A program made the position numbers and the translations under genes. The notes under the pieces were generated by a model. That model was not told where the DNA came from and made no database searches. It saw nothing but the letters and a program-made list of their open reading frames with translations. DNA of 48,868 nucleotides from a virus (Duplodnaviria > Heunggongvirae > Uroviricota > Caudoviricetes), in the IMG/VR virus record IMGVR_UViG_2667527965_000003, positions 1-48,868 of that record; one strand, 5' to 3'. Below, piece after piece: positions 16,383 to 48,868 of the stretch. Within the stretch, counting starts at the first letter, position 1; every line of letters starts with the position of its first letter.

Positions 16383-16741
16383 TGATAAAATTAACCAGAG
16401 AGCTTATTGAGGATGCACTCATCAAATGTGAGTCGTGCAAAGACTCGGGGACATTCCCAGTTAGCGTAGAGGTAATTCGGGAGTTGGCGCTTTTAGCGTT
16501 GGCGGACATCGATTCAGACCAAAATGCAACGCTTCAACCTCAGGAAAGTTCTTGTGAGTCTGATTTGTTGCCAGTGGGTTGGGTGGTTGTGCCGGTGGAA
16601 ATGACTCCATCACAAATGAGAGCTATACAGTTAAGATCTGAGGTGGGTGGCTACATTACCTCGAATCTTACAGGTGCCTACTCGCTACTGTCTGAGCTTT
16701 GGGAAGTAGCTCTGGCAGCCGCACCTAAGCGTATGGGGTAG
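16379..16741 (+). CDS. Hypothetical acidic protein
   Basis: 120 aa, D/E-rich; lower GC than the upstream methyltransferase genes; hairpin terminator follows. Confidence 0.4.
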   Translation: MMIKLTRELIEDALIKCESCKDSGTFPVSVEVIRELALLALADIDSDQNATLQPQESSCESDLLPVGWVVVPVEMTPSQMRAIQLRSEVGGYITSNLTGAYSLLSELWEVALAAAPKRMG

Positions 16742-16907
16742 TATGGAAAGGGCTGAAAGAAGTCGGCCCTTTTACCCATGGTGGTAAAAATAGGGATCAT
16801 TTGAAGAAAGTTCAGGATAGTTGGCCTGTGTCAGAGAAACACATTTTAACGACTGCATAATGGGTTAAACCCGGTTATAAATACTTTTTCATTCAAGAAT
16901 TTAAAAA

Positions 16908-17690
16908 ATGAGCACAATAAATAAGCACGGACTTTCGCGTACAATACCTCCGTCCGTAAAACGATTAGTGCGGCAGAGATGTGGATTTGGATGCGTGATC
17001 TGCGGTTTTGGATTTTACGATTATGAGCATTTCGCTCCGGACTTTGCCGATGCCACAGAACACAACCCTGAAGGCATGACGTTATTGTGCTCTCAATGCA
17101 ATCAAAAACGTGCGCGTGGGCGCTTGTCAGCCCATACAGTTGCGGTCGCCAATGCCAACCCGAAGTGCCTGCAGCAAGGCTTCGCCAGTGAAATGTTCGA
17201 TTTTCACAGCGAACCTATCGAAATAAAATTCGCAGGCGTAACTTTTTATGACTGCAAGCATTTAATTGTTGTTAATGATCGCCCAATTTTATCGGTACGG
17301 CCAGCGATTGATGATAAGTCTCCCATTCTGCTTTCAGGCGTTTTTAGTGATCCTGCCGGCAGGGAGACCCTAATTATCAATGAAAATGAATGGTCAGTAG
17401 ATTCCGAATACTGGGATGTTGAGTGTGTAGGGCCAAGGATAATCATTCGAAGTTCACCGGGGCAGATAGTTCTCGTACTAAAAATGAACAGCCCTACAGG
17501 GATTGTAGTTGAACGCTTCGATATGCTTTTTGAGGGCGTCAGGCTAAGAGGGGACGAAGAGGCGCTACAGGTATGTTATGACGGTGAAAACTGGAATGAA
17601 TATGTGTGTCACAGCATAAGACATTGCAATACGGGTATAAATATCATTACGCGACCATGCGCAGCAAATGACCCGGTTTACGCTGCATAA
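16908..17690 (+). CDS. HNH-endonuclease-domain protein with unknown C-terminal domain
   Basis: N-terminal CGFGCVIC ... YEHF ... TEHNPEGMTLLCSQCNQ (Cys pairs with His/Asn typical of HNH); about 160-aa C-terminal region not recognised; low-GC gene. Confidence 0.5.
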   Translation: MSTINKHGLSRTIPPSVKRLVRQRCGFGCVICGFGFYDYEHFAPDFADATEHNPEGMTLLCSQCNQKRARGRLSAHTVAVANANPKCLQQGFASEMFDFHSEPIEIKFAGVTFYDCKHLIVVNDRPILSVRPAIDDKSPILLSGVFSDPAGRETLIINENEWSVDSEYWDVECVGPRIIIRSSPGQIVLVLKMNSPTGIVVERFDMLFEGVRLRGDEEALQVCYDGENWNEYVCHSIRHCNTGINIITRPCAANDPVYAA

Positions 17691-17796
17691 TCGTTAAACA
17701 TGAGCTACCAGAAAACCCTTTTACTTCAGCCTGTCGATTTAGCCAAAAGGCTGCCTACCATACAAGCGATATGGGAATCCCCATATCGACAGCTAG

Positions 17797-17817
17797 GGCC
17801 TCTCCGGAGGCCTTTTT
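17797..17817 (+). terminator. Rho-independent terminator after the HNH-domain gene
   Basis: GGCCTC-TCCG-GAGGCC hairpin followed by TTTTT. Confidence 0.6.
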
Positions 17818-18163
17818 CACGCCCGGTGAATAGGTGATTCGAGCATGATCGATAATACCGATCGATACAAGAATATTGATCTATGAAATCGATTATTAAA
17901 TAGACACAGAACAGCAACAAATTACCGAAGGGCACCCTCTGACGCAGACGAAATACCCTCTGTCGATAGTGACATCTTTGCCATTTATCTGGCGCCAGGC
18001 TTTCCGTACAGATATTTACGGTCGACATTTCTGACGTGAGCCTTTGTTAAAAATAACGATCACTTTTTACACGTAAGTAGCAATAAAATTTATTTAAATC
18101 AATCAGATGAATGGGCTTGCGCAGCCATGTACTTCATGTGCATACTTAAGCCAAACGAATAAA

Positions 18164-18183
18164 TACTGTTTATACATACAGTA
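18164..18183. promoter_or_regulatory. LexA (SOS) box
   Basis: TACTGTTTATACATACAGTA fits CTGT-N8-ACAG with AT-rich spacer (LexA consensus TACTGTATATATATACAGTA). Confidence 0.65.
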
Positions 18184-18201
18184 TTTTGTTGTATGGTTTA
18201 G

Positions 18202-18327
18202 ATGCTACAGAAAAAAATGAATTTTTCTTCCGGCGAACTTATTAGGAAATTTGCGCCATTTGTTATTTTGGCTCTGTGGAGTGGATTTCTCCCCGCCGGG
18301 AGAGCGTATTTGGTGATAGCAAAGTGA
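18202..18327 (+). CDS. Possible small hydrophobic peptide (41 aa), not in the ORF track
   Basis: ATG at 18202, stop at 18325-18327; MLQKKMNFSSGELIRKFAPFVILALWSGFLPAGRAYLVIAK; about 20 bp downstream of the LexA box; translation unproven. Confidence 0.25.
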   Translation: MLQKKMNFSSGELIRKFAPFVILALWSGFLPAGRAYLVIAK

Positions 18328-18336
18328 GGAGGGGAT

Positions 18337-18531
18337 GTGAGCATAGAGGTCGCCGAAGCGATTAAAACAGTCTCGGAGGGCGGTAAGTTCGTCATTACTT
18401 GCAATAATGGGGAAATTACCAGCCTGGAGCGCGTTAGGGACGATCAGCACGTTCTCTCGCTTGCTGAGTTACTCTACCTTCTTCGAGAAGCTGGGTTCCG
18501 CATTGACGGAGCGGATAGCCTACTGCCATAA
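18337..18531 (+). CDS. Hypothetical small protein (64 aa)
   Basis: GTG start with AGGAGG RBS at 18327-18332; downstream of the LexA box. Confidence 0.4.
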   Translation: MSIEVAEAIKTVSEGGKFVITCNNGEITSLERVRDDQHVLSLAELLYLLREAGFRIDGADSLLP

Positions 18532-20001: not shown

Positions 20002-20138
20002 AACCAGAACTAATCGAATCGCTTCGCATGCGCTGGCTGCGCCTTCGCATTTATCGCCGCCCGGGAACGGTGCTGGTGGACTATCGCATCCTTCGTAACT
20101 TTATTCGCATCTACCAGATTGCAGGAGCTGCAGCGTGA
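19998..20138 (+). CDS. Hypothetical small basic protein (46 aa)
   Basis: ATG at 19998 overlapping the ninG stop; ends overlapping the next start; Arg-rich. Confidence 0.3.
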   Translation: MKPELIESLRMRWLRLRIYRRPGTVLVDYRILRNFIRIYQIAGAAA

Positions 20139-20824
20139 ATACTCAATACCTGGAATTTGTACGCCAGCAGCTCATCGTTGCGACTGCTGATCTGAGCGGG
20201 GCGACCAAAGGGCAGTTGATGGCCTGGCTGGAGAACGCCCAGTTCGATACCGGGACATTTAAGCGGAAGAAGCCTAAAGTATGGGACGAAGAAAGCGAGA
20301 AGTGGGTGCCGGTTGATAACCCACCGATCCCCGGCAAACAGTCACACGCAAAGGGCTCACACATTCCTCTGGTTCAGCCGGTCGAATACTCCACCGCGTC
20401 GTGGCGCCGGGCGGTCCTGTCACTGGAGGAACATCAGAAGGCCTGGCTGCTATGGAACTACAGCGAAAACACGCGCTGGGAGAATCAGGTGTCGATCACC
20501 CAGTGGGCATGGGGCGAGTTCAGGGCGCAGCTGGTTGGTAAGAAAGTGGCCGGTAAGACGATGGAGCGGTTGAAGGCATTAATCTGGCTGGCGGCGCAGG
20601 ACGTGAAAGCTGAACTGGCCGGGCGGGAGACTTACCAGAAGCAGGAACTGGCTGAGCTATGCGGTGTGAAGCCGGATAACTGGAGTCATAACTACGCCGA
20701 TTACTGGAATGCCATGTGCGCCATATTTGAGCGACTTGATAGTGATGCTTTACTGCGAGCAGTGAGAACACGATCACAACAAAAATCAGCAAATTCGCAG
20801 CAAGGTATTGCAAAAGTCAATTAA
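20135..20824 (+). CDS. Putative late-gene antiterminator (Q-like)
   Basis: 229 aa; GTG start with AGGAG RBS; positioned after ninG and before the lysis cassette as Q is in lambdoid phages; call is mainly positional. Confidence 0.45.
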   Translation: MNTQYLEFVRQQLIVATADLSGATKGQLMAWLENAQFDTGTFKRKKPKVWDEESEKWVPVDNPPIPGKQSHAKGSHIPLVQPVEYSTASWRRAVLSLEEHQKAWLLWNYSENTRWENQVSITQWAWGEFRAQLVGKKVAGKTMERLKALIWLAAQDVKAELAGRETYQKQELAELCGVKPDNWSHNYADYWNAMCAIFERLDSDALLRAVRTRSQQKSANSQQGIAKVN

Positions 20825-20902
20825 ATAGGCCATATTCACGTCTACTTTGATATGCTGCCTTAACTTTAAGTGGCGGCATTGAAGAAAGAAGAAAAGATTC
20901 CA

Positions 20903-20934
20903 GCCCTGCGGTTAACCCCACGGGGCTTTGTCGT
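20903..20934 (+). terminator. Possible tR'-like terminator downstream of Q-like gene
   Basis: GCCCTG...CGGGGC imperfect hairpin followed by TTTGTCGTTTCT about 80 nt after the Q-like stop. Confidence 0.3.
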
Positions 20935-21392
20935 TTCTGGAGGGCCATAATATGTGACAGCCAAACGGATAGACCGCAGCCAAAAGGCAATGCAGCAGTC
21001 ATGATGCTGCCCTGAGTCGCTATTGAGCGAGCCTGTGTAGTGACGGGTCAAGGTTCATATATCAAAAAAAGCTCCGGTAGAGCAGCGCGAACGCCAGACG
21101 CGCACCGGTTATCAGCGGCGATGATGCGACAGCGACTCAAGGGCATGAGCGTAGCCACTCCGGGAAGTGGCAAAGAGTTTACAGCCCCGCTTTAGCGAGG
21201 CTTTTCGTTTTCAAATGGTCTTACGACACCAATATCTACCAAGTAGGTGTCCGAGCCAGCGCAAACTACGACTGATGAAGCTAAAAGCAGAAACCTAATG
21301 GTCTCGTAGTCCCCCGTGCGCTGGTATGGTGGGGGAGTGAGGTAGATAATTATATTTTTTAAGCGGTAAGCTCATAAGCATGTGGCTTAATC

Positions 21393-21923
21393 CTACTTCA
21401 GCTTAATAGAAAACCCCTCCCTGGGATCTATCATCTTTATTTCGAGCAGCCCGTTTATTTTACTTGTTTTTTCACGATCATCTTTAATATCTATTAACCA
21501 GGCATTAACTGCTGCCATTACGTCTTTGCCAAATTGCTCAACGGAAAGTAACAGCGTACTGTTAAACTGGTTGCAGTGGAATCCGCCCGGACCAGAAGTA
21601 TTCTGAACAAATACAAAATCTCGCAATACATCTCTTGCGTTCTGAGAGGTGATATCACCACTTCCTTCATGTAAATAGGCGCATCGCAACGCATAGAAAT
21701 CGGAACCTGTCAGGAACACACGATCTTCTCTGTTGCCAGCTATGTTACGTGTATACGCATGTTTTAGATATTTGTTATACCAGTGTATGGTTCTTGCCTT
21801 CGAGCCTTTGTTTGGGTCATCTATTTTCCCGCAAATATCAGGAAGAGTCAGGGATATAAACAATACTGAGTACCAATTTTTGGTTTTGATAGACATATCT
21901 AGTGCTTGAATAAAATTATTCAT
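21393..21923 (-). CDS. HEPN-motif protein (candidate abortive-infection or toxin RNase), low-GC moron
   Basis: 176 aa on the strand opposite to flanking late genes; contains RCAYLHEGSG (Rx4H with following Gly); GC visibly lower than backbone. Confidence 0.45.
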   Translation of the reverse strand: MNNFIQALDMSIKTKNWYSVLFISLTLPDICGKIDDPNKGSKARTIHWYNKYLKHAYTRNIAGNREDRVFLTGSDFYALRCAYLHEGSGDITSQNARDVLRDFVFVQNTSGPGGFHCNQFNSTLLLSVEQFGKDVMAAVNAWLIDIKDDREKTSKINGLLEIKMIDPREGFSIKLK

Positions 21924-22141
21924 TTCGGCAACTCCATTTGATTAAATTACTATTTAATACAATCTAATAGAATCCAACTAAAAGTTGGTTCCAGCAACAT
22001 AATTACGTCAACTCTCTGAATTTGATCACCATTCCAGGCCCTGTAGTGGGGCATTTTTCTATTTGAGGCTCCGGGCAACACCCTTAACACGCTTTGTTGT
22101 TAATTCACCACGAGAGCCCGACCTCTACACATGGACCACCT

Positions 22142-22540
22142 ATGTCTGAACCTCTAACCATTGCTGGCGGTGTCACGTCCGCAACTATCGGAGTGACGTT
22201 CGCATCTTTGTTCCCCGAGGCAACGCCCGGCGTAATGCTGTGCGCGCTGGCTGGTGCAGCAATGTACGTTCTGACATCCGATCCACACCAACTGTGGAAG
22301 CAGTTCCTGTTCGCCGTCATCAGCTTTGTCGGCGGGGTTTTCTTCTCGGTGCCGATGGCGAAGATACTGGCCGGGGTGATTAATACCGCCCTTGGCCTGT
22401 TGCAGCCGCCGGTAAGCATCGAGGTATCCCCGAATATCGGCGCACTGGTTTCCGCTTCCATCTCTGTCGCAGTCCTGCTTCGCATCCTCGCCAAATCAAA
22501 ACGGGGGAAGATGCCGGGACTGGAGGAGGAAGGCCAATGA
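22142..22540 (+). CDS. Putative holin
   Basis: 132 aa from ATG at 22142 with several hydrophobic segments; first gene of lysis cassette; start uncertain. Confidence 0.5.
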   Translation: MSEPLTIAGGVTSATIGVTFASLFPEATPGVMLCALAGAAMYVLTSDPHQLWKQFLFAVISFVGGVFFSVPMAKILAGVINTALGLLQPPVSIEVSPNIGALVSASISVAVLLRILAKSKRGKMPGLEEEGQ

Positions 22541-29244: not shown

Positions 29245-29760
29245 ATGAGCTCTGTTACGCCAAACGAAGTTGGTTCGTACGTTCTTTCCCTTATTGGGCC
29301 AATTATTATTGGTATTGCGGCGGCAGCATTCACTGCTTATTTCGCGTTACGCCGGTTCTACAGGGAAAAGTGGTGGGAAAAGAAGCATGCAGCCTATGGG
29401 CAACTGATCGATATCCTTATCGATATAAAGTCAATATATGCTATGGCCTCGAATTATCATCAGCGCATCTATGAGGCTGAGCGAAGGTTGGAAGACGTGC
29501 CAGATTACCATTTCGATTGGAGTCGGTTTAACGACCTCCAAAAACAACTAAGAAGGTCATTTATACTGGCTCCCATATCTCTCAGCAGTAACACAGAGAA
29601 TTTATTAGATGAATTATTTTCTTTGGATGCTAGTGCAAAGGAAATGATATATGAAGAGAACTATCCAGCGCAGGCTGCGTATGCAGACATGGCAAATGAT
29701 GTCGAAGGCATCATTAGATTAATAGTTGAAGATGCCAAAACAGAATTGAGCTTCCACTAA
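29245..29760 (+). CDS. Single-pass membrane protein of unknown function (low-GC moron)
   Basis: 171 aa; N-terminal TM helix (VLSLIGPIIIGIAAAAFTAYFAL) then soluble domain; AT-rich gene between head genes; own terminator. Confidence 0.45.
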   Translation: MSSVTPNEVGSYVLSLIGPIIIGIAAAAFTAYFALRRFYREKWWEKKHAAYGQLIDILIDIKSIYAMASNYHQRIYEAERRLEDVPDYHFDWSRFNDLQKQLRRSFILAPISLSSNTENLLDELFSLDASAKEMIYEENYPAQAAYADMANDVEGIIRLIVEDAKTELSFH

Positions 29761-29777
29761 ATAAAAATACCAATTGA

Positions 29778-29797
29778 CCCGCTTCGGCGGGTTTTTT
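29778..29797 (+). terminator. Rho-independent terminator
   Basis: CCCGC-TTCG-GCGGG hairpin plus TTTTTT; same hairpin motif recurs at 37618 and 44627. Confidence 0.65.
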
Positions 29798-33135: not shown

Positions 33136-33516
33136 ATGGCTGACCCAATCACGGCGGCAGACGTGCAGGCGTTCCTCGGTGAATTGGGTTACTCCATCCC
33201 GGGAGCGCTGCTGGAGCCGATCCTCTGCGTGGTGAACAAAATCATCCCGTGTCTCGATGGGGCCGGGTATGACGACTGCACCGCAAAGCTGATCCTGATG
33301 TACGCGGCCGCGCTGATGGCGACGTCCTCCGGCGCGCGACGAATCAAATCGCAGGGTGCGCCGTCTGGCGCGTCACGCTCGTTTGAGTATGGCGACGACA
33401 GTATCACCTGGCTGCGCGACTCACTGGGTCGCCTCGATACCAGTGGCTGTACCGGGGAACTGCCTATCAGCGCCGGTAACAGCGTAGGCATGTTCATGGT
33501 TGTCGGGGGCTGCTGA
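33136..33516 (+). CDS. Putative head-tail connector protein
   Basis: 126-aa ORF in head-tail joining region. Confidence 0.4.
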   Translation: MADPITAADVQAFLGELGYSIPGALLEPILCVVNKIIPCLDGAGYDDCTAKLILMYAAALMATSSGARRIKSQGAPSGASRSFEYGDDSITWLRDSLGRLDTSGCTGELPISAGNSVGMFMVVGGC

Positions 33517-33689
33517 TGACCTGGACACCCGTAAGCGTCCGGCTGCCGCGCTCATTCACCCGCGTCTGGGTGCTGACCGACACCGGGCGGGAGACCACCG
33601 GCTACGTCAAATCGGACGGCGAGTGGTTCATTAACTGCCCGCGTATCCGGGCTACTGGCGCGGTGGTGCTGCGCTGGAAGGAGGACTGA
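33516..33689 (+). CDS. DUF551-like small protein (57 aa), absent from the ORF track
   Basis: ATG at 33516 overlapping upstream stop, stop overlapping next ATG; translated MTWTPVSVRLPRSFTRVWVLTDTGRETTGYVKSDGEWF...; W..VS..LP pattern resembles DUF551. Confidence 0.45.
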   Translation: MTWTPVSVRLPRSFTRVWVLTDTGRETTGYVKSDGEWFINCPRIRATGAVVLRWKED

Positions 33690-35672: not shown

Positions 35673-36362
35673 ATGACACCAGTTAAAGAGTTTGGAGAAT
35701 GCCTTATTAGTGTCGGTGATAAGGACTACTTTTTCCGTCCGTCACTATTCGCGATGTCCAGAATTGGCGATCCTGTAAACATCGTTCAGACGTTTTACGA
35801 CCTCTGCAATGATGAAGTGGCTACTGTCATCCAGAAGGCTGCTGCATCCTACATTCATTCAGAATATGACCGTCTTCCTGAATATGTAATCAACTACATA
35901 CGGAGCGGGATACTGAGCCGCAAGGCTATCATGGCTGCGCATACAGTGCTGTCTGCGTGCTGCGATGATGACACAGGAAACCTTATTGGCTGGATGCAGC
36001 CAGGAAAAAGCCGGAAGCGTAGCTTTATGTGGCGGCAAGGTGTCATGCCGCCGCAGGATATGGTCATTATTGCTCAAAGTCTCATGATGCACGGCATTAT
36101 CGGCCAAGCTAAGTTACGCAAGCTGCAGCGGCACGAACCGAACGAGCCCACCAATGAGTTCAGGGCATTGGATTACATTATTGCCGCACGCAACCACTTC
36201 AACATCAGCAAAGAAGAAGCTGGACAGCTGACGATGACAGAGTTCCAGATGATGCTTGCCGTGAAATATCCTGAACAGAAGGGATATACCAGGGAAGAAT
36301 ACGATAGTGCGGCAGATGACTACTTTGCGCGACGCAAACGGCGGCAGGCTAAGCAGAAGTAG
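35673..36362 (+). CDS. Putative tail assembly chaperone
   Basis: 229 aa between major tail and tape measure genes; basic C-terminus; positional call. Confidence 0.4.
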   Translation: MTPVKEFGECLISVGDKDYFFRPSLFAMSRIGDPVNIVQTFYDLCNDEVATVIQKAAASYIHSEYDRLPEYVINYIRSGILSRKAIMAAHTVLSACCDDDTGNLIGWMQPGKSRKRSFMWRQGVMPPQDMVIIAQSLMMHGIIGQAKLRKLQRHEPNEPTNEFRALDYIIAARNHFNISKEEAGQLTMTEFQMMLAVKYPEQKGYTREEYDSAADDYFARRKRRQAKQK

Positions 36363-36406
36363 CCCACTCAGGTGGGCTTTAGATCTGTTATCTCGGGGAG
36401 AGGGCG

Positions 36407-36601
36407 GTGAAACCTAAGCAAACATTAACCATTAACAATTTGATACCATTCCCAAGCGAAGCGCCGAGAGAAGAGACCATAGAGTGTAATGATGTTTTTC
36501 TTGATAATTCAATGCTAGAGGAAAAAATTTCTACTCGAATAGGTTTTAGTAGATTGATTTTTGTTAATGAAATCAACTCGATCAATTCCATCTCGGAGTG
36601 A
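36407..36601 (+). CDS. Hypothetical small protein (moron cluster)
   Basis: 64-aa ORF with GTG start in AT-rich region; weak. Confidence 0.25.
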   Translation: MKPKQTLTINNLIPFPSEAPREETIECNDVFLDNSMLEEKISTRIGFSRLIFVNEINSINSISE

Positions 36602-36638
36602 ATTATCATATGCGCATACCTTTCAATAGGATGCGAAA

Positions 36639-37220
36639 ATGATTAACGAATATGATTTCGTGACAGCGGCAGGTCATATAGCTAAACATGAAGCCGGTCA
36701 CTGGCTTGCGGCGTTTAAATTAGGCTGGAACCCAAGAGGTATAGGCTTGAGAGTGCCGTCTCATGCTAAAGATCACATGGGTTATTCAGAAACAAGTCAC
36801 AAAGTCGATTTAAGCAGCATTGAGGATGTCCGGGATTACGCAAGAGGCAGGGTAAAAATTCTCTACAGTGGCGTATATGCAGAGCACTTTGACGGAAAAG
36901 ACTTTGATCACGAATCCATAATGCGTGATATGAAGCGTGGCGGCGGTGCTTATTCTGATTTCTGGAAAGCTGAAGAAATCTACTTCTTTTACTACAACTG
37001 CCTCGACATAAAGGGAACGTGGGAGCAAGAGTTTCAGCCTATTATTTGCGACGTTCAGCTCATGATCGAAATGCATTACGACTTCATCATCTCTGTAGCC
37101 AAATACGTCATGGCAAGGGCAAACTTTGTTGGTCAGAGTATAGAGGTTTCATCCTCCGACCTGATCAGGATATTCAAAAATAGCACCATTAAGCTTCCTG
37201 ATCATGACCCTCTTCGTTGA
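36639..37220 (+). CDS. HExxH-motif protein (candidate zinc metallopeptidase), moron
   Basis: 193 aa; HEAGH near N-terminus (IAKHEAGHWLAAF); low GC; inserted between tail chaperone and tape measure genes. Confidence 0.4.
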   Translation: MINEYDFVTAAGHIAKHEAGHWLAAFKLGWNPRGIGLRVPSHAKDHMGYSETSHKVDLSSIEDVRDYARGRVKILYSGVYAEHFDGKDFDHESIMRDMKRGGGAYSDFWKAEEIYFFYYNCLDIKGTWEQEFQPIICDVQLMIEMHYDFIISVAKYVMARANFVGQSIEVSSSDLIRIFKNSTIKLPDHDPLR

Positions 37221-37325
37221 GTGTGTTCCCGTTTCCGGTCGATTGAGATCAATAAATCAGCGTTTGCCGTTGCGCCTGTGCTATTCCTGGGTAGGATGTT
37301 CATTTTTACCAATGGGGATAGGGAT

Positions 37326-37613
37326 ATGAGAAAGACGATGTTGTTGTTAGCACTAAGTTGCTCATTGTCTGCTGCGCATGCAAACAGCGATATGAGATCA
37401 ACACTTCAAGCTTCTGAGAATGCAATTTGTCAGGATAACGCAAAAAAAGAGCAGTGCATTACAGCGGTTCAGAAGCTCATGTTTGCAGTCAGCAAAGTTA
37501 CTGAGCTTAATGAAAACTGCAAGAAGCCGAATGGCAATGTTGGAATTGAACAGCAATGCCAACAGTCTGAAGAAGCTATAGGCTACATAAATAGCCTGGT
37601 AAATAAACCATAA
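37326..37613 (+). CDS. Secreted Cys-rich small protein, moron
   Basis: 95 aa from ATG at 37326; signal peptide MRKTMLLLALSCSLSAAHA; several Cys; followed by terminator. Confidence 0.45.
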   Translation: MRKTMLLLALSCSLSAAHANSDMRSTLQASENAICQDNAKKEQCITAVQKLMFAVSKVTELNENCKKPNGNVGIEQQCQQSEEAIGYINSLVNKP

Positions 37614-37617
37614 CCAA

Positions 37618-37638
37618 CCCGCTCCGGCGGGTTTTTTT
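37618..37638 (+). terminator. Rho-independent terminator
   Basis: CCCGC-TCCG-GCGGG hairpin plus TTTTTTT. Confidence 0.65.
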
Positions 37639-37654
37639 ATAGCCGGAGATAATA

Positions 37655-40180
37655 ATGGCAGGCGCAGAAAATGCTGGAAGTATCGTTTATGAAGTAAGCG
37701 CCGAAGTAGCGCCTCTATTACAGGGTGGGCGTCAGGTAAACAGGGTTCTTAGCGATATTGAGTCCGCATTAGACGATAACATAAACCAGTTCAAGCGGCT
37801 TGAAACCAGTGTTAGTACCACCGCCCAAGCGGTATCTACTGCAACAAGAAGTATGGGTAATCTTCGCGGCGTTTTTGGGCAGCTTGGGTACCAGGTGCAG
37901 GACATCGCGGTTCAGTTACAAATGGGCCAAAATGCAATGCTTGTGTTCGCACAACAAGGCTCACAGATCGCTTCTATCTTTGGTCCTGGTGGCGCTGTAA
38001 TCGGTGCAATTATTGCCATCTCTGGCGCAATAGCTGGAGCGCTTCTCCCATCCCTTTTTAATTCCAAAGATGCAACACAAGAGCTTGAATCCGCCCAAAA
38101 GGCGCTTTCAGAGACTGTTGTAAAAACCGACTCAGGAGTGAGCGCTCTATCTGAAAAAATACAGCGACTAGCAGCAGTTAGTTCAGATGCTGCAAAGGCA
38201 CAGATAGCCGTAGCCATGACTGATGCGCAACGAGCCATCAGCGCTGCAGGAAGCGTCATCTCTGACCAAATCAATGATTTGGGAACCTGGCGTAACAGCA
38301 TGTCAGCTGCTGAAAGTCAGTTAACCACGCTCGAAGGTAAAGGCGTTGATGTTTCGAAGATGCTAAAAGATCTTGGCGGAAGCTATGAAGGAAATATTGC
38401 TGGCATCAATATTCTGAACAACGTAACCAATTCAATGTCCGAGGCGTTCGGAATAACACAGACTCAGGCTGTTGGCCTGGTAAAAGTATTCCGAGACCTC
38501 CAAAAAGAGCCTACAGCAGAAAACATGCAGGCCGCAGCATCTGCCCTTTCCTCACTCAGTGAGCAAACTGGTTATGCAAACCCCAAGCTTAATGAGTTGA
38601 CCAATGTCGTCAACCAAAACTATGTCTCTGCGGCAAATGCAACAGATGCTATCAACGTTCTTAAAGGCGCTCTTGACAACCTTACCGGCGCAACAGAGTC
38701 ATCCCAGAAGGCATTATCGGGCAATGCGGAGCAATTAAATAAACTGGTTGAGGCTGCAAAAAATGAAGCCGCAACTGTCGGATTTAGTACCCGACAGCGA
38801 GCTAAATATGTGGCTGGTCTTTTAGGGGCAACAGATGCTGAATTGAAGTCTCTTGATGCAAGCTATGACCGAATAGAATCATACGAGAACGAGCAGAAGG
38901 CGCTTAAAGAGCAAGAAGGAGAGCAAAAGAAAGCAGCATCGGAAGCTGAGGCAGCGGCTAAACGGTCAGCCGCTGCGCAGCAACAGGTGGTTAATCAGCT
39001 GGAACAGTTATCAGAAAAATATCAGATAGCCGTTCTTGAACAGCAAGGTATGGGCCGGGAAGCTGCGGTCCTGGCTGCTCAACAGCAAATGGGGGCAGCT
39101 GCCACCAAACAGCAGGTGCAACAGGCGGGAGATCTTGCTGGCAAGTTGTATGATGTTGCCCAAGCCACAAAAGCAGCACAGGAAGCGGAGCAGGCTAGAA
39201 AGCAATCGAGCCAGAACTTCTCCAACCTTCAAGGCCAGGCATCGCCAGTAGCAGCAGTAGATAACCAGTTTCAGCAGCAGATGGATCAGCTCAACCAATA
39301 TGCCATCTACTATCCCCAGAAAATAGCTGAAGTCGAAGCTACACGGGCAGCGATAGAGGATCAGTACCGGCAAAAGAGGGTGGCAGCCATGTGGCAAGAA
39401 TGGCAGCAGCAAAGCACGATAAACGCTCTTGCCGCTTCAGCTGTAGAGTCTTTGCAAAGCGGCGCAACAAATGCCATCACAGGGTTGGTAAACGGCACGC
39501 AAAGTCTTTCCGAGGCGTTTGCTAACCTTGGCACGTCAGTAATTAACGGCATTGTGAGCAGTCTCGTACAGATGGGTACACAGTGGGTTATGTCCGCAGC
39601 GATGGGGCAGGCTGCGCAGACCGGCGCAATAGCGGCGAACCAGGCGGCGGCAACTGCGGCGCTTGCGGCATCCACTTTGGCCGGAACAGCTGCCGCCACG
39701 ACGCTTCTCGCATCGTGGTCTCCCGCTGCGATGGCTGCTAGTATCGCAACATCTGGTGGTGCGGCAACAGCTGGGTTGGCTGGTTATAACGTTGCAATGG
39801 CTGGCTCGAAAATAATGACCGTCGCCGGTGCCCGCGAACATGGCGGCCCGGTATCGGCCAGCTCCATGTATCGTGTGGGCGAGGGTGGTAAACCTGAGAT
39901 TTTCAAAGCCAGCAATGGCAGCCAGTACATGATCCCCGGAGATAACGGTCGCGTCATCAGTAACCGGGATATCGGCGGTGGTGGTGGCGGGTTCAATTAC
40001 AGCCCGACTATCCAGATCAACGGTAATCCGGATGAAAAAACCATAGCTCTGGTAGAGGCGGCCGTGGCTCGCGGTGGTAAGCAGGTATATCAGCAAATAA
40101 GTGGGGATCTTGCCTCAGGGAAAGGAAACGTTTCTAAAGGCCTGCAAAGCGGCTGGACCGCTAAAAGGAGGATTGGTTAA
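37655..40180 (+). CDS. Tail tape measure protein
   Basis: 841 aa; Ala/Gln-rich, hydrophobic Gly-rich segments (GAVIGAIIAISGAIAGA); position before tail tip genes. Confidence 0.75.
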   Translation: MAGAENAGSIVYEVSAEVAPLLQGGRQVNRVLSDIESALDDNINQFKRLETSVSTTAQAVSTATRSMGNLRGVFGQLGYQVQDIAVQLQMGQNAMLVFAQQGSQIASIFGPGGAVIGAIIAISGAIAGALLPSLFNSKDATQELESAQKALSETVVKTDSGVSALSEKIQRLAAVSSDAAKAQIAVAMTDAQRAISAAGSVISDQINDLGTWRNSMSAAESQLTTLEGKGVDVSKMLKDLGGSYEGNIAGINILNNVTNSMSEAFGITQTQAVGLVKVFRDLQKEPTAENMQAAASALSSLSEQTGYANPKLNELTNVVNQNYVSAANATDAINVLKGALDNLTGATESSQKALSGNAEQLNKLVEAAKNEAATVGFSTRQRAKYVAGLLGATDAELKSLDASYDRIESYENEQKALKEQEGEQKKAASEAEAAAKRSAAAQQQVVNQLEQLSEKYQIAVLEQQGMGREAAVLAAQQQMGAAATKQQVQQAGDLAGKLYDVAQATKAAQEAEQARKQSSQNFSNLQGQASPVAAVDNQFQQQMDQLNQYAIYYPQKIAEVEATRAAIEDQYRQKRVAAMWQEWQQQSTINALAASAVESLQSGATNAITGLVNGTQSLSEAFANLGTSVINGIVSSLVQMGTQWVMSAAMGQAAQTGAIAANQAAATAALAASTLAGTAAATTLLASWSPAAMAASIATSGGAATAGLAGYNVAMAGSKIMTVAGAREHGGPVSASSMYRVGEGGKPEIFKASNGSQYMIPGDNGRVISNRDIGGGGGGFNYSPTIQINGNPDEKTIALVEAAVARGGKQVYQQISGDLASGKGNVSKGLQSGWTAKRRIG

Positions 40181-41144: not shown

Positions 41145-41525
41145 ATGTTCAATCCTGATAAATACCGTTCTGTCGAGTGGCAGAAGGGCGGACGCGCTTA
41201 CCCCGCGCTGGACTGTTTTGGCATCGTCAACGAAATCAGGCGCGATCTGGGCCTGGCGCCGTGGCCGGATTTTGCCGGGGTCACGAAGGATGATAACGGC
41301 CTCGACCGGGAGGCGCGCGGGCTCATGGCTGGCCTGACGCGATGTGAACCGGCCCCGGGCGCGGGTATCGCCTGTTATTCCGGCTCTGTGGTGACACACG
41401 TTGCCATCGTGGTCGAGATTGACGGCCAGCTGCGCGCCGCAGAGTGCAATCCCCGCACTAACGTGACCTTTCTGCCGCTGGCGCGGTTTGCGCGCCGCTT
41501 TGTTCGCGTGGAGTATTACCAGTGA
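41145..41525 (+). CDS. Tail-associated NlpC/P60-like protein
   Basis: 126 aa; conserved Cys (ALDCFGIV) and His (VTHVAIVV) spaced as in C40 peptidases. Confidence 0.4.
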   Translation: MFNPDKYRSVEWQKGGRAYPALDCFGIVNEIRRDLGLAPWPDFAGVTKDDNGLDREARGLMAGLTRCEPAPGAGIACYSGSVVTHVAIVVEIDGQLRAAECNPRTNVTFLPLARFARRFVRVEYYQ

Positions 41526-44500
41526 CGATCCGAATCTATCCCTCCCGGCTGCCGGGCGAACCGCTGGAAACGCATCAACATGAAACGGTGACACTTAGCG
41601 CCTGGTTTGCGCAGAACGTGAAGGACTGGGCACCGGATCAGCAGCATCCGGTCGCGGTTGAAATCGACGGCGTTCCCGTCCCGGCGTCAGAGTGGCCACT
41701 GTGCGTTATCAAGCGAGAAACTGACGTCCGGATGTATCCAGTGCCCTACGGCACCGGCGCAGAAATCGCGATCTGGGTTGCCGTCAGCGTAGCGGTCGCC
41801 TCTGCTGCGTACAGCATCTACATGATGAGTACAATGTCACAGGCTGGAGGTGGCGGTGCCCAAGCAGCCAGCGGTGACCAGATTGACCTCAACCCGGCCA
41901 AAGCGAACGCGGCGAAACTGGGCGACCCGATCCGGGAAATCTTCGGAAAATATCGCGTCTGGCCTGATTACGTCGTGCAGCCGGTGAGCCGGTTCGTTAA
42001 CGAGACCAGCATGGAAACCAGCATGTTCCTGTGCGTGGGTGTCGGCGACATGGTGATTAACCAGTCCGATATCCGGATCGGCAATACCCCGATCTCCGCG
42101 TTCGGCACTGACGTCCGTTACACACTTTACCCGCCTGGCTCCACGGTATCCGGCGACACGCGCACTGAAAACTGGTTCAACTCACCAGAGGTCGGCAATA
42201 CCGGCTCCGGTACCGCCGGGCTGGACCTGGGCTCAAGCGGCCCGGAGACGGTCAGTATTATCGCGGATGCGCTGGTCGTGTCCGGAAACTCCATCACGTT
42301 GGTTGATGTATCGTCGTCTGGCGATGAGGAGATCCCGCCGTCGTGGACTGTCGGAACGGTCATCACCGTCTTGGCTCCAAAATCTTACACGGTCGTGTCG
42401 TCTGGCGGTTACAGCGTGATTTATGGCGGGATAGAGGAGCTGGCACCAGTGGTCGGAATGCCGGTATCCCTGAACTATAACGGCAACGACTACGACCTGG
42501 TGATCGCCAGCTATGCCCCGGGCGTTCCGGCGGTGCCGGGGGTAGGAGGTAGCGCCGCCAGAATAACCGCCAGTGCAGCGCCGACGACATACGATTTCAG
42601 TAGTACGCCTGTCACGTTCAGCATCAGCTGGCAGGGCACGACCTACCCGGTATCGCTGGTTACCAATTACGTCACCATGTCGGGGCTGGTTTCCTCGATT
42701 ACCTCCCAGCTCTCAGGTTCCGGACTGGTCGCGCGCGATAACAGCGGACGGCTCGAAATCGGCGAGGTCAGCAGTCCCTATGCTGGCGGATCCATCACCA
42801 ACAGCCCATTACCCGTAGCTGTGTTCGGTGATGCCCCGGTCAATACGGCTGGCGTAAAATCTACGGGCGGCACGGCCGAGGTACGGGCACACATCACCCT
42901 GGCGTACAACAGCGCCACCGGCACGCCGTTTACGGGACTGCCGGAGGGCATTCAGCGGTTTTCTCTGGGGTTGTCCGGCAATCAGTTCCGGATAACTGCT
43001 GTGGATAGCCAGACGGTCACGGTTGAGCGGCTTACAGTCACTACCGGACCGGGCGGTGAGACCATCACCACGCCGGATCCATCGTGGCCTGGCTTCACTG
43101 AGCGTACGCTGCTGGATGCGACCGTGACGGGTGTCAGCGACGATTACGAATGGGTTGGCCCGTTCCTGGCCTGCCCCGACGGTGAGACCCTGGACGCATT
43201 CGAGGTGAACATCAACTTCCAGAGCGGCCTGGTGCGTTACACCGACCAGGGGAATAAGCGTTCCATGCCGGTACGCCTGGTAATCCAGTATCGCAAGGTT
43301 GGCACCACCACCTGGCAGCAGCAGTCTCCGTTCTATTCCCGCAGTACCGAGAACCAGATCGGGTTTACGCATCGCTACAGCGTGTCTCCTGGGCAGTATG
43401 AGATCCGGATGCGCCGCACCGAACCGGTTAAGGGTGGCAGCACTCGCGACCAGGTGTTCTGGCAGGCGCTGCGCTCACGGCTCAGTAAGCGCCCCACGAA
43501 ATACGACGGCGTCACCACCATGGCGCTGACCGTGCGCACAGGGAATCGCCTGGCGGCCATGTCCGATCGCCGGATTAGCGTTACACCAACCCGGATTTAC
43601 AGCGGTGGCAGAACGGCGCGGAGCATCAGCGGGGCGCTTTACCACGTGCTGGAGTCGCTGGGGTTCACGGTCAGCCAGATTGACACGGCGGCGATTGACG
43701 CGCTGGAGCAAACCTACTGGACGCCCCGCGGTGAGAAATTCGACTGGGCGAGCGGTGAGAGCAAGTCTGCGCTCGAGGTGTTGCAGAAAATCACCAACGC
43801 AGGGATGGGATATTTCCTTCTGTCTGACGGGCTGGCGTCTGCCGGCAGGGAAGGCATTAAACCTTGGGTAGGCATGATCACCCCACAGGAAACCACCGAG
43901 GAGATGCAGACCGCGTTTAAGGCCCCATCACAGGACGATTACGACGGCGTGGACGTGACCTATATCAACGGCACCACCTGGGCAGAGGAAACCGTGCAGT
44001 GTCGCCAGCCTGGCAACCCAACACCGCTGAAAATCGAGAGCTACACGCTGGATGGCGTTCTGGACGAGGACCGGGCATACCGCATCGGCATGCGCCGACT
44101 ACTGGGCTACCAGCTGCAGCGCCTGCAGCACACCACCTCAACAGAGATGGATGCACTCTGCTATGAGTTCATGGATCGTATTGTACTGGCTGACGACATC
44201 CCTGGTGGTCAGCAACTGAGTTGCCTAATTACCGATATGACGTATGACAGTAGCAAAATCACCATGACGCTCAGCGAGCCGCCGGACTGGTCGTTCCAAA
44301 GCCCGCGCGTGATTATCCGCCATCAGGATGGCAGGGCATCGCCAATGGTTGTGCCGACACGCATTGACGACTTCACCATCTCGGTGCCGTACAGCGCCGC
44401 GCTGGAGCCTGAATTGTGGGCGATGAACGACGCGTACATTGAGCCGCCGCGCTTGCTGTTCTGCTCATCAGTTCGTGTGCCGTATGACGCACTGGTGGGG

Positions 44501-44605
44501 GAAATATCTCCGGGCAATGACGGAATCAGTCAGGTAACAGCCATCCAGTACCACCCAGGGAAGTACGCCTACGACGACGCCACCTATCCCGGCGACGCCG
44601 CTTAA
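41522..44605 (+). CDS. Tail tip / host-specificity protein (J-like)
   Basis: 1027 aa; GTG start overlapping upstream stop; large size and position after tail assembly genes. Confidence 0.6.
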   Translation: MTIRIYPSRLPGEPLETHQHETVTLSAWFAQNVKDWAPDQQHPVAVEIDGVPVPASEWPLCVIKRETDVRMYPVPYGTGAEIAIWVAVSVAVASAAYSIYMMSTMSQAGGGGAQAASGDQIDLNPAKANAAKLGDPIREIFGKYRVWPDYVVQPVSRFVNETSMETSMFLCVGVGDMVINQSDIRIGNTPISAFGTDVRYTLYPPGSTVSGDTRTENWFNSPEVGNTGSGTAGLDLGSSGPETVSIIADALVVSGNSITLVDVSSSGDEEIPPSWTVGTVITVLAPKSYTVVSSGGYSVIYGGIEELAPVVGMPVSLNYNGNDYDLVIASYAPGVPAVPGVGGSAARITASAAPTTYDFSSTPVTFSISWQGTTYPVSLVTNYVTMSGLVSSITSQLSGSGLVARDNSGRLEIGEVSSPYAGGSITNSPLPVAVFGDAPVNTAGVKSTGGTAEVRAHITLAYNSATGTPFTGLPEGIQRFSLGLSGNQFRITAVDSQTVTVERLTVTTGPGGETITTPDPSWPGFTERTLLDATVTGVSDDYEWVGPFLACPDGETLDAFEVNINFQSGLVRYTDQGNKRSMPVRLVIQYRKVGTTTWQQQSPFYSRSTENQIGFTHRYSVSPGQYEIRMRRTEPVKGGSTRDQVFWQALRSRLSKRPTKYDGVTTMALTVRTGNRLAAMSDRRISVTPTRIYSGGRTARSISGALYHVLESLGFTVSQIDTAAIDALEQTYWTPRGEKFDWASGESKSALEVLQKITNAGMGYFLLSDGLASAGREGIKPWVGMITPQETTEEMQTAFKAPSQDDYDGVDVTYINGTTWAEETVQCRQPGNPTPLKIESYTLDGVLDEDRAYRIGMRRLLGYQLQRLQHTTSTEMDALCYEFMDRIVLADDIPGGQQLSCLITDMTYDSSKITMTLSEPPDWSFQSPRVIIRHQDGRASPMVVPTRIDDFTISVPYSAALEPELWAMNDAYIEPPRLLFCSSVRVPYDALVGEISPGNDGISQVTAIQYHPGKYAYDDATYPGDAA

Positions 44606-44626: not shown

Positions 44627-44647
44627 CCCGCTTCGGCGGGTTTTTTT
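44627..44647 (+). terminator. Rho-independent terminator
   Basis: CCCGC-TTCG-GCGGG hairpin plus TTTTTTT. Confidence 0.65.
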
Positions 44648-47932: not shown

Positions 47933-48592
47933 TTGATGAAACAGCCTGCGCCCGTTTATCAGAGAATTGCGGGTCATCAATGGCGACATATCTGGCTTTC
48001 TGGCGATATACACGGTTGTCTTGAGCAGTTGCGCCGCAAATTATGGCATTGTCGTTTTGATCCGTGGCGAGATTTACTTATCTCAGTGGGAGACGTTATC
48101 GATCGTGGGCCGCAAAGTTTACGTTGTCTGCAGTTACTGGAACAACATTGGGTTCGTGCGGTAAGAGGCAATCATGAACAGATGGCGATGGATGCGCTGG
48201 CATCCCAGCAGATGTCTTTATGGTTGATGAATGGCGGCGACTGTTTTATTGCGCTGGCAGATAATCAACAGAAACAAGCGAAAACGGCGCTGGGGAAATG
48301 TCAGCATTTGCCCTTTATTCTTGAAGTACACAGTCGCACCGGCAAGCATGTTATTGCTCATGCCGATTATCCAGATGATGTTTATGAATGGCAAAAGGAC
48401 GTCGATTTGCATCAGGTCTTGTGGAGCCGCTCGCGATTAAGTGAACGCCAAAAAGTGCAGGGAATTACAGGTGCTGATCATTTCTGGTTTGGTCATACAC
48501 CGTTGCGACATCGCGTGGATATTGGCAACCTGCATTATATTGATACCGGTGCTGTCTTTGGGGGCGAACTGACTCTTGTGCAATTGCAATAA
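47933..48592 (+). CDS. pphA: Serine/threonine protein phosphatase 1 (host gene)
   Basis: 219 aa with metallophosphatase motifs (GDIHGC, GDVIDRG, GNHE); recognised as E. coli-type PphA. Confidence 0.8.
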   Translation: MMKQPAPVYQRIAGHQWRHIWLSGDIHGCLEQLRRKLWHCRFDPWRDLLISVGDVIDRGPQSLRCLQLLEQHWVRAVRGNHEQMAMDALASQQMSLWLMNGGDCFIALADNQQKQAKTALGKCQHLPFILEVHSRTGKHVIAHADYPDDVYEWQKDVDLHQVLWSRSRLSERQKVQGITGADHFWFGHTPLRHRVDIGNLHYIDTGAVFGGELTLVQLQ

Positions 48593-48784
48593 TTAAAAAT
48601 CACCGTACTCCTGTGCAGGTCGCCAGAAACCATCTATAAAATCCTCAATCGGAAAACAACCGCCATGGCGGATCCGTTGATCGCTCATAGAATGAAGACA
48701 CTGCTGTTCCGTGTTGTAGACATCCACAACAATATCTTCACAACCGCCATCCAGGTAGCAAACAAAAAGTACCAGCGCGAACAT
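48593..48784 (-). CDS. yebW: YebW-like small protein (host gene)
   Basis: 63 aa from internal Met (MFALVLFVCYLDGG...) of the 91-aa track ORF; convergent with pphA; identity from memory of gene order and length. Confidence 0.4.
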   Translation of the reverse strand: MFALVLFVCYLDGGCEDIVVDVYNTEQQCLHSMSDQRIRHGGCFPIEDFIDGFWRPAQEYGDF

Positions 48785-48868
48785 TTCATCCCCGAAGTGT
48801 GGTGCCGTACCGTTAAGTTTAGGAGAGATTTTACAACGGGGGAATAACCAGGACAAATAACCCGCCAT

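Follow-up and report, generated by a model that had tools for sequence, protein, structure and literature searches.

The virus record IMGVR_UViG_2667527965_000003 (Caudoviricetes, IMG/VR) was analysed over its full 48,868 nucleotides, referred to here as the window, and this report concerns a stretch of 1292 bp (36363-37654) lying between a DUF6246 gene and the tape-measure gene. The stretch contains three open reading frames (ORFs), which we call orf64, M41L and sec95, and it is accessory cargo in a classic moron slot. Comparison with related loci, numbered with the prefix L, indicates that the three ORFs are two independently inherited units and not a single cassette. Unit 1 is made up of a boundary hairpin, orf64, a hairpin that sequesters a Shine-Dalgarno (SD) sequence, and M41L; Unit 2 is made up of a conserved leader, sec95 and a terminator. 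M41L is a cytoplasmic, free-standing homologue of the FtsH/peptidase M41 domain that lies outside the curated family boundary and is not FtsH itself, and Unit 2 represents one of several alleles at a cassette site that codes for exported proteins. On balance, and with modest confidence, we read the stretch as a two-unit cargo combining a partner-controlled M41-type protease with an interchangeable periplasmic factor.

The separation into two units follows from the genes that travel together. sec95 is found without the protease gene in L010, L066 and L067, and the protease gene is found without sec95 in L001, L009, L011-L014 and about 50 other loci. In each of the four distinct loci where it occurs, sec95 lies 41-44 nt upstream of one tape-measure allele (79-95% identity); the named protease loci that lack it adjoin other tape-measure types (33-43% identity). 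As orf64 and the protease gene co-travel, and sec95 travels with the leader and the tape-measure allele, the genes do not form one cassette. Among the protease-carrying loci the homology starts exactly at the boundary hairpin, which looks like a weak terminator, regardless of whether the gene upstream is DUF6246 (the window and L001), a KilA-N-like gene (L011 and L013) or something else (L014). Selection estimates place all three genes under purifying selection.

Three hallmarks of a moron can be seen in the stretch as a whole. It is extra DNA that is present or absent between conserved genes of related phages; its composition deviates, with a GC content of 0.426 against a window mean of 0.542, a value as low being reached in only 0.19% of windows of equal length (the 0.19th percentile), which makes it the lowest-GC 1.3 kb of the prophage; and it has its own terminator, a stem at 37616-37633 followed by a run of seven Ts, which ends the cargo 15 nt before the tape-measure start. 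The exact 193-residue M41L protein is recorded in at least 24 contigs, where its flanks are the same, and the content of the slot varies among prophages that share the DUF6246, tape-measure and tip genes (Table 1). Gene 15 of HK97, for which the term moron was coined, occupies the slot between the tail chaperone and tape-measure genes (PMC3594210). The preliminary description of this DNA had read the stretch as accessory cargo, and the slot, the low GC, the terminator and the presence or absence among otherwise near-identical prophages bear this out. Its low-GC cluster holds as far as composition goes but not as a single cluster of three genes, and the start that it gave, 36388, belongs to an antisense ORF, the insert beginning directly past the DUF6246 stop at 36363.

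That description had further placed the stretch between tail chaperone and tape-measure genes. The tape-measure flank is confirmed by its match to phrog_1538, while the chaperone label for DUF6246 comes from gene position alone, with no PDB match and no informative literature support found for it. It had also seen the stretch as standing in the place of a chaperone frameshift extension. The frame of orf64 is indeed -1 relative to DUF6246, but stops at 36380 and farther upstream close it, and the DUF6246 gene has no in-frame XXXYYYZ slippery heptamer and no -1 extension. The suggestion therefore falls, and orf64 as a G/GT-type frameshift extension is ruled out by the closed frame and the missing heptamer.

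In related phages the DUF6246/tape-measure slot also holds KilA-N/ANT-like and Arc/Mnt-like ribbon-helix-helix genes (Table 1), these labels having been read from sequence by eye except for KilA-N as annotated in KY271395. Together these genes resemble a P22 immI-like secondary immunity region within the tail operon.

The identity of M41L emerges from structure and from sequence profiles. The 193-residue protein with HEAGH near its N-terminus is present as first described, and it has no match in Pfam, NCBIfam or PADLOC. For PF01434 the window protein gave no match and its relatives remained below threshold (E 0.014-0.09; cutoff 29.9 bits). An AlphaFold2 model was obtained at a pLDDT of 90.4, and when it was searched against the PDB with Foldseek ranks 1-33 were all FtsH, YME1, AFG3L2 or FtsHi except for two chains of 5iqj (probability 0.69-1.00, TMq 0.28-0.61). 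The top match in BFVD, which holds viral models, was a 214-residue 'Peptidase M41 domain-containing protein'. Independently of the structure model, hhalign comparison of the sequence profile of a 96-sequence M41L family with an FtsH protease-domain alignment gave 96.5% probability (E 9.3e-10) over 144 columns, and paired HEAGH with HEAGH, LY(S/A/G)G..AE with LYGGRLAE and G..SD with GASND of Escherichia coli FtsH. The same 96-sequence profile reached FtsH 2di4 in the PDB at E 0.0097. Searches of the PDB with the single sequence or the close-family profile gave nothing useful, and an hhalign comparison with E. coli FtsH as a lone sequence was likewise weak, at 10.7%. The zincin-like character proposed in the preliminary description is thus borne out by the fold and profile searches and is sharpened to an FtsH/M41 protease domain.

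A profile search of 1.84 billion representatives returned 368 relatives, mostly of 180-215 residues. His17, Glu18, His21, Gly78 and Asp107 are invariant in 96 diverse relatives, and the first three are also invariant in 18 close ones. Asp107 aligns with the Asp of the FtsH GASND motif in the hhalign comparison, and in FtsH crystal structures the Asp of the GASND helix is the third zinc ligand. M41L would appear, from these alignments, to carry an intact putative zinc site of the form HEAGH...D. Because the catalytic residues are invariant in the 96 relatives and the ratio of nonsynonymous to synonymous substitution rates (dN/dS) is 0.13, it is probably an active protease. The protein is the protease domain alone, with no AAA+ module, transmembrane segment or signal peptide.

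The element order common to FtsH and M41L is a HEAGH helix, a beta-hairpin, a LYxGxxAE helix, a GxxxD helix and C-terminal helices. M41L shares fold and order with the FtsH/M41 domain (E. coli FtsH; 2di4, 3kds and 2ce7; YME1; AFG3L2), and the zinc-binding His-Glu-His and Asp are conserved between them. Unlike FtsH, however, M41L has no AAA+ ATPase, transmembrane anchor or periplasmic domain, is only 193 residues long and falls below the PF01434 threshold; it belongs to mobile phage DNA, and in place of an unfoldase it has a small partner protein. Two other proteins, both uncharacterised, are similar in being short and having an FtsH-type HExxH helix with no ATPase, namely PDB 5iqj, a Vibrio cholerae protein of just 131-134 residues, and UniProt A0A6J5RJ76, a 'Peptidase M41 domain-containing protein' of an uncultured Caudovirales phage.

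The probable partner is orf64, which is found where the preliminary description had it. In three diverged copies its start, its stop and its frame of 64 codons are kept, with dN/dS of 0.32-0.46, and in IMG/VR it occurs exclusively in contigs that also carry the protease gene. Codon-position counts cannot tell orf64 from the antisense 73-residue ORF, as the wobble positions coincide; the strand was chosen by the conserved start, stop and length, by a gene fusion in Pectobacterium and by the direction of the operon. More widely, at least eight clades have a same-strand ORF of 53-64 residues that ends 33-77 nt before the protease gene; it is seen in the window type and in L002, L003, L015, L016, L029, L030, L033 and L034. 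Even in AT-rich DNA such ORFs are improbable by chance, because 60 open codons at 40% GC would arise in about 2% of cases per frame by our own estimate. Seven of the nine aligned upstream-ORF sequences share the motif P-[IFL]-P-x-E-x9-D-x-F-x6-E-[RK]-[FIL] with identical spacing.

In the Pectobacterium clusters P0006 and P0007 (246 residues) the upstream segment is fused in frame to the protease, and this was confirmed on DNA in Pectobacterium polonicum (L071, 4818-5555). A jackhmmer search begun from this N-terminal extension reached the Klebsiella ORFs of L003 and L016 (E 5e-4) and then the orf64-type sequence of L014, at E 0.002 among 5161 ORFs, which is borderline homology; the best matches below threshold were all ORFs upstream of a protease gene. 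A hidden Markov model of the three close orf64 copies did not match the Klebsiella small ORFs (E 5-9), so that the link between them runs solely through the Pectobacterium fusion and is borderline. A type II toxin-antitoxin module would pair a growth-arresting toxin with a small antitoxin, encoded upstream, that has a DNA-binding fold. Of this design Unit 1 shows the small acidic upstream gene and the predicted translational coupling; searches of Pfam, PHROG and NCBIfam with orf64 detected neither a DNA-binding domain nor any other. From its conservation and its co-occurrence with the protease gene, orf64 is very probably the cognate partner of M41L; that it acts as an inhibitor or pro-domain of the protease is a more tentative proposal, to which we give somewhat less than an even chance.

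The spacing between the two genes suggests how they might be coupled. A hairpin that begins 4 nt past the orf64 stop pairs both the SD sequence and the AUG of the protease gene (Table 1), with a minimum free energy of -13.3 kcal/mol and a z-score of -3.0, not equalled by any of 200 shuffled sequences. An equivalent hairpin folds in L001 (4253-4291) and L014 (872-910) with pair-preserving changes, and the sequence-unrelated Klebsiella units reuse the design in L002 (around 3968-4011, z -2.3) and L003 (around 3956-4011, z -4.2). Since the hairpin buries the SD sequence and the AUG so close to the orf64 stop, it implies the standard layout of translational coupling, in which the protease would be made only right after its partner.

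Unit 1 is, as judged from sequence comparison, mobile among moron hot spots. In IMG/VR we found 54 loci with M41L relatives, in several slots (Table 1), although a profile search of genome contigs with close alignment gave four loci only. As relatives occur in several slots the protease gene is accessory and not a tail gene, and M41L as a tail-specific gene was rejected on finding relatives between lysis and terminase genes. Other subfamilies of M41L have a conserved ORF of 56-61 or 63-70 residues directly downstream of the protease gene, and the 56-61-residue ORF moves with the protease between two different slots. In distant subfamilies a neighbouring gene, either upstream or downstream, has a common N-terminal transmembrane region (E 1e-5 to 1e-8) and might represent another type of partner. 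From gene order, then, the need for a partner seems to be general in the M41L-like family, though the partner is not always alike.

Unit 2 begins with a leader that is near-identical before unrelated exported-protein genes in L001, L009, L011, L013, L066, L067, L075 and L076. Klebsiella loci (L002 and L023-L028) have its 3' core, GGGGATAGGGATATG, as well, and L050 has two copies of that core. The leader ends in GGGGATAGGGAT-ATG and is often preceded by a CCCGCTTAACTGCGGG terminator, and in every case examined the first gene past it encodes a signal-peptide protein or a lipoprotein. Of 5426 complete E. coli genomes, only 5 carry it. A search of Rfam gave nothing but sub-threshold terminator-like matches, and the leader has no special fold; nor does it contain a sigma-70 match of at least 9/12, though a weak candidate promoter, TTGCGC-16-TAGGAT, can be picked out by eye. 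The leader may be both a promoter with a ribosome-binding site and an anchor for recombination, and the site looks like an organised one for cassette exchange before the tape-measure gene.

The N-terminus of sec95, MRKTMLLLALSCSLSAAHA followed after the cleavage point by NSD, has a positive n-region, a hydrophobic core and an AxA site (AHA/N), from which it is predicted to be a Sec-exported protein. Its Siccibacter homologue, 62% identical, has a signal peptide free of Cys (..SASHA/AGE), which indicates that sec95 is a substrate of signal peptidase I; sec95 as a lipoprotein is excluded on the same ground. The earlier characterisation as a secreted Cys-rich protein with a clear signal peptide agrees with this prediction of export, while 'Cys-rich' is only mildly apt, there being four invariant Cys in the mature protein. 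The AlphaFold2 model has a pLDDT of 69.5, or about 75-80 in the mature part, which is predicted to be a three-helix bundle (helices 16-35, 41-65 and 75-92). There was no Pfam match above threshold, with a weak sub-threshold match to DUF7032, and tblastn gave no match in 50,697 phage records. The protein is rare, with two clusters in 5.8 billion proteins. Between sec95 and its L010 homologue pN is 0.23 and pS 0.84.

The terminator that closes the cargo is of a recurring CCCGC-N4-GCGGG form, as had been noted previously, with three copies in the window (29778, 37618 and 44627) against 0.10 expected. The identical core, CCCGCTTCGGCGGG, stands at 29778-29791, past a 171-residue ORF (29245-29760), and at 44627-44640, after the gene for the 1027-residue tip protein (41522-44605). 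As these terminators punctuate the late operon, the operon depends on Q read-through.

The window is a complete temperate siphovirus prophage and is Q-dependent. Its completeness is indicated by the integrase, an O-like replication protein, the terminase and the portal; a RecE-like exonuclease, a DNA methyltransferase, a holin, and capsid, tail and tail-fibre genes are also present. Given the Q gene, late transcription is expected to read through both hairpins around the cargo, and we infer that all three cargo genes are co-expressed with the tail genes in lytic growth. A terminator before the tape-measure gene is also what would be expected if a transcript active in the lysogen needs stopping there.

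Taken together, these features suggest the following scheme. orf64 would be translated first and its translation would open the ribosome-binding site of the protease gene. The orf64 product would then act in trans as a pro-domain-like regulator, either an inhibitor or a specificity subunit, which in Pectobacterium would be the N-terminal extension of the same polypeptide, and the complex with M41L would be a soluble, latent zinc protease of narrow specificity. The protease would cleave a particular host or phage protein in phage-host or phage-phage conflict, with a logic like that of the e14 Lit protease or of a Tab/anti-Tab defence and counter-defence pair. sec95 would be a periplasmic factor, acting on the envelope or in exclusion and suited to this type of tape measure, much as HK97 gp15 acts from the same slot. 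We put the chances of a conflict role for Unit 1 at about even, and sec95 as an exclusion factor, which is argued from analogy, somewhat lower still. A more specific version for Unit 1 is rather doubtful: orf64 and M41L would form a two-part phage protease of an undescribed kind, an FtsH domain that has lost its unfoldase and whose latency is maintained by a pro-domain, in trans here and in cis in Pectobacterium. It would be mobile among the moron hot spots of siphoviruses and myoviruses, serving either as an anti-phage effector, by abortive infection or exclusion, or in counter-defence, through destruction of an immune protein of the host.

Several points weigh against this scheme. The linkage of sec95 to one tape-measure allele could be plain adjacency downstream of a recombination-prone leader, and the cassette family in L011 and L025 is not bound to one tape-measure type. 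The model of sec95 is of moderate confidence and a fold search with it gave no match. In Unit 1 there is no room for a promoter between the boundary hairpin and orf64, so that the unit may be expressed solely with the late operon, which would favour a role in the lytic cycle; the lone sigma-70-like match of at least 9/12 (36501-36528) lies inside orf64, with its -35 element conserved and its -10 element not. None of the three proteins matched PADLOC-DB 2.0 at E values up to 1. Finally, the partners in other M41L subfamilies differ in sequence and position, so that the reading as a pro-domain is not simply generalisable.

Of the alternatives, the one that survives best, though we consider it unlikely, is that M41L mimics FtsH, either co-assembling with, capping or competing with the host enzyme, so as to alter the stability of CII/CIII, sigma-32 or LpxC and bias the lysis-lysogeny decision or host physiology. 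M41L is a full-length homologue of the ring-forming FtsH protease domain and the phage is temperate; the control of CII by FtsH is established (Shotland 2000, as cited in PMC6892783). Identity to FtsH is only about 15%, however, which does not imply conservation of the ring interface, the invariant catalytic residues favour catalysis by M41L itself over a pure decoy, and nothing in our data links it to CII. Less likely again would be a derepression protease similar to ImmA, cleaving the repressor of its own or a co-resident prophage from within a secondary-immunity/antirepressor region. The ImmA/IrrE proteases are, like M41L, HExxH zincins, the slot in related phages holds KilA-N/ANT-like and Arc/Mnt-like genes, and in L002/L023-L028 and L011-L013 the gene immediately before the unit is of KilA-N type. 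M41L does not match Peptidase_M78 or any other Pfam family, though, IrrE and ImmA are missing among its fold matches, and no repressor gene adjoins it in the window.

The preliminary description had suggested a single cassette of three genes, for example a protease toxin with an immunity protein or exported effector, co-expressed from the repressed prophage for conversion or exclusion. The three genes adjoin one another, share a strand and are low in GC, with one strong terminator at the end. L001, L011 and L013 have a terminator after the protease gene that in the window is degenerate, making read-through into sec95 possible. We nevertheless regard this as improbable, since sec95 and the protease are inherited separately and the leader, which serves many unrelated genes, parts the units. 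A structural or morphogenetic role, in which the tape-measure protein or some other tail protein would be a substrate of M41L, with orf64 or sec95 as assembly factors or the missing chaperone extension, is still less probable. The genes do lie inside the tail operon, presumably co-transcribed under Q, and relatives of M41L are often found in tail modules. On the other hand L010, L066, L067, L075 and L076 have the same DUF6246, tape-measure and tip genes with no M41L, distant relatives lie between lysis and terminase genes, orf64 is no frameshift extension, and sec95 is predicted to be exported when tails assemble in the cytoplasm. A reading of the stretch as the remains of decay or as DNA that hitch-hikes without function, which its rarity might suggest (the leader in 5 of 5426 E. 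coli genomes, sec95 in two protein clusters), is hardly credible in view of the dN/dS and invariant catalytic residues of M41L and the conserved ORF lengths and coupling hairpin.

The two-unit cargo that we favour can be compared with several known systems. HK97 gene 15 (Juhala 2000; Cumby 2012; PMC3594210) has in common with it the slot, the deviating GC, a terminator and a small envelope-targeted product. Superinfection exclusion by gp15 turns on which tail and tape-measure protein the infecting phage has (PMC3594210); the association of sec95 with a single tape-measure allele is a parallel. gp15 is, however, a YebO-like inner-membrane protein, whereas sec95 has a predicted cleavable signal peptide, no membrane anchor and no Pfam match; between the two proteins only the genomic slot is shared, and the window adds a protease unit. 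Tab/anti-Tab and Tai/Ati are defence and counter-defence pairs in the late operons of prophages (PMC10884400, PMC11364771). They too are small accessory gene pairs in the late or structural region, in which one member neutralises the other, and they target tail components, but they contain no protease and are found at other sites (between the terminase genes, or ahead of those for packaging); Tai/Ati was rejected as a match for the cargo on both counts.

Abortive infection by Lit of the e14 prophage, an HExxH zinc protease, proceeds through the cleavage of EF-Tu. As a prophage-encoded, free-standing cytoplasmic metalloprotease that is latent until triggered, Lit is a functional analogy for M41L, but no sequence or family relationship between them was detected, there being no Pfam match.

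FtsH is the host protease that decides between lysis and lysogeny for phages of the lambda type, and there are hardly any reports of phage-borne homologues. A 2019 paper (PMC6892783) described the full-length FtsH of a jumbo phage as the first phage FtsH. In the literature we found no paper on the free-standing M41L family, its partner genes or the leader-cassette site, although a few relatives have already been given an automatic 'M41 domain-containing' label in databases. Moron architecture as such is well known from textbooks; what appears to be undescribed is the pairing of a free-standing FtsH-type protease with a small partner, and likewise the leader-cassette site. Here the protease half of FtsH, with its catalytic site intact, is a recurrent mobile cargo of temperate enterobacterial phages, in every case accompanied by a small partner. 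At about 800 bp, orf64 and M41L offer a compact system for studying the targets of an M41 protease and its mode of action in the absence of an unfoldase. The leader-cassette site points to an organised swapping of exported-protein genes before the tape-measure gene and is a source of candidate exclusion factors.

Table 1. Features of the window and of related loci (positions without a locus number are those of the window).
Feature	Position or locus	Strand	Evidence or remark
Integrase gene	681-1766		Prophage gene content
Q antiterminator gene	20135-20824	+	Pfam Phage_antiter_Q, E 1.4e-95
DUF6246 gene, left flank	35673-36362	+	PF19759, E 3.7e-77; phrog_791; between major tail protein and tape-measure genes
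Left-boundary hairpin of Unit 1	36361-36378	+	GCCCAC-TCAG-GTGGGC then TTTAGATCT
orf64	36407-36601	+	64 aa; GTG start; small acidic protein, net charge about -5
Intercistronic hairpin	36605-36643	+	RNA fold; pairs SD (AGGA) and AUG of the protease gene
M41L	36639-37220	+	193 aa; HEAGH at residues 17-21; phrog_36675, E 5.7e-72, function unknown
Cassette leader	37243-37325	+	About 85 nt, TTGAGATCAATAAATCAG...GGGTAGGATG...TTTTACCAATGGGGATAGGGAT; ends at sec95 start codon
sec95	37326-37613	+	95 aa, mature part about 75 aa; phrog_21025, E 2.5e-14
Intrinsic terminator	37616-37640	+	AACCCGC-TCCG-GCGGGTT and T7 run; z -2.6
Tape-measure protein gene, right flank	37655-40180	+	phrog_1538, E 1.8e-157; Pfam TMP_2
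Slot content, Siccibacter	L010		Solely a 91-aa homologue of the exported protein
Slot content	L009		Protease and VasI-like 165-aa exported protein
Slot content, E. coli LR-28	L001		Protease and two other genes
Slot content, Klebsiella phage 2b	L002		KilA-N protein, protease and lipoprotein
Slot content	L066, L067		Arc/Mnt-like and ANT-like genes and exported protein
Slot content	L075, L076		Three small genes, without protease
KilA-N/ANT-like and Arc/Mnt-like slot genes	L002 2934-3689; L011 4150-4713; L030 1168-4675; L033/L034 5512-5772; L066/L067 1000-3850
M41L relatives, DUF6246/tape-measure slot
M41L relatives, DUF1833/p126 slot	L036-L047		Same phage group
M41L relatives, myovirus-type prophages	L003, L016-L021, L048		Between tape-measure and DNA-circulation protein genes, and also beside baseplate V
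M41L relatives, lambda-like genomes	L051-L063		Between lysis cassette and terminase genes
Small ORFs downstream of protease gene	L036-L047 5526-5696; L050 4549-4734; L051, L055, L060-L063 about 5570-5780
Neighbours with transmembrane anchor	L048 4496-4933; L053 3199-3762; L057 5577-6056; L064 4286-4840

Some further features of the window lie away from the cargo. Two other islands have a GC content of 0.45 or below. The first, at about 16600-18500, contains ORFs at 16908-17690 (+, 260 aa) and 17726-18028 (-, 100 aa), neither with a Pfam match, and the second, at about 20650-22200, contains one at 21393-21923 (-, 176 aa), likewise with no Pfam match, that sits between the Q antiterminator gene and the holin gene, the slot of the toxin genes in Stx phages. 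At the right end, past the tail fibre gene, there is a gene for a calcineurin-like metallophosphoesterase (Pfam E 1.4e-15; ranges 47933-48592 and 48593-48868), a region that may be more cargo or host DNA. In L075 (E. coli FDAARGOS_1250) a 57-residue ORF at 581-754, between a DUF7370 gene and the next head-tail gene, corresponds to WP_204156914.1, whose RefSeq label of '50S ribosomal protein L13' is a probable mis-annotation; its counterpart in the window is at 33516-33689.

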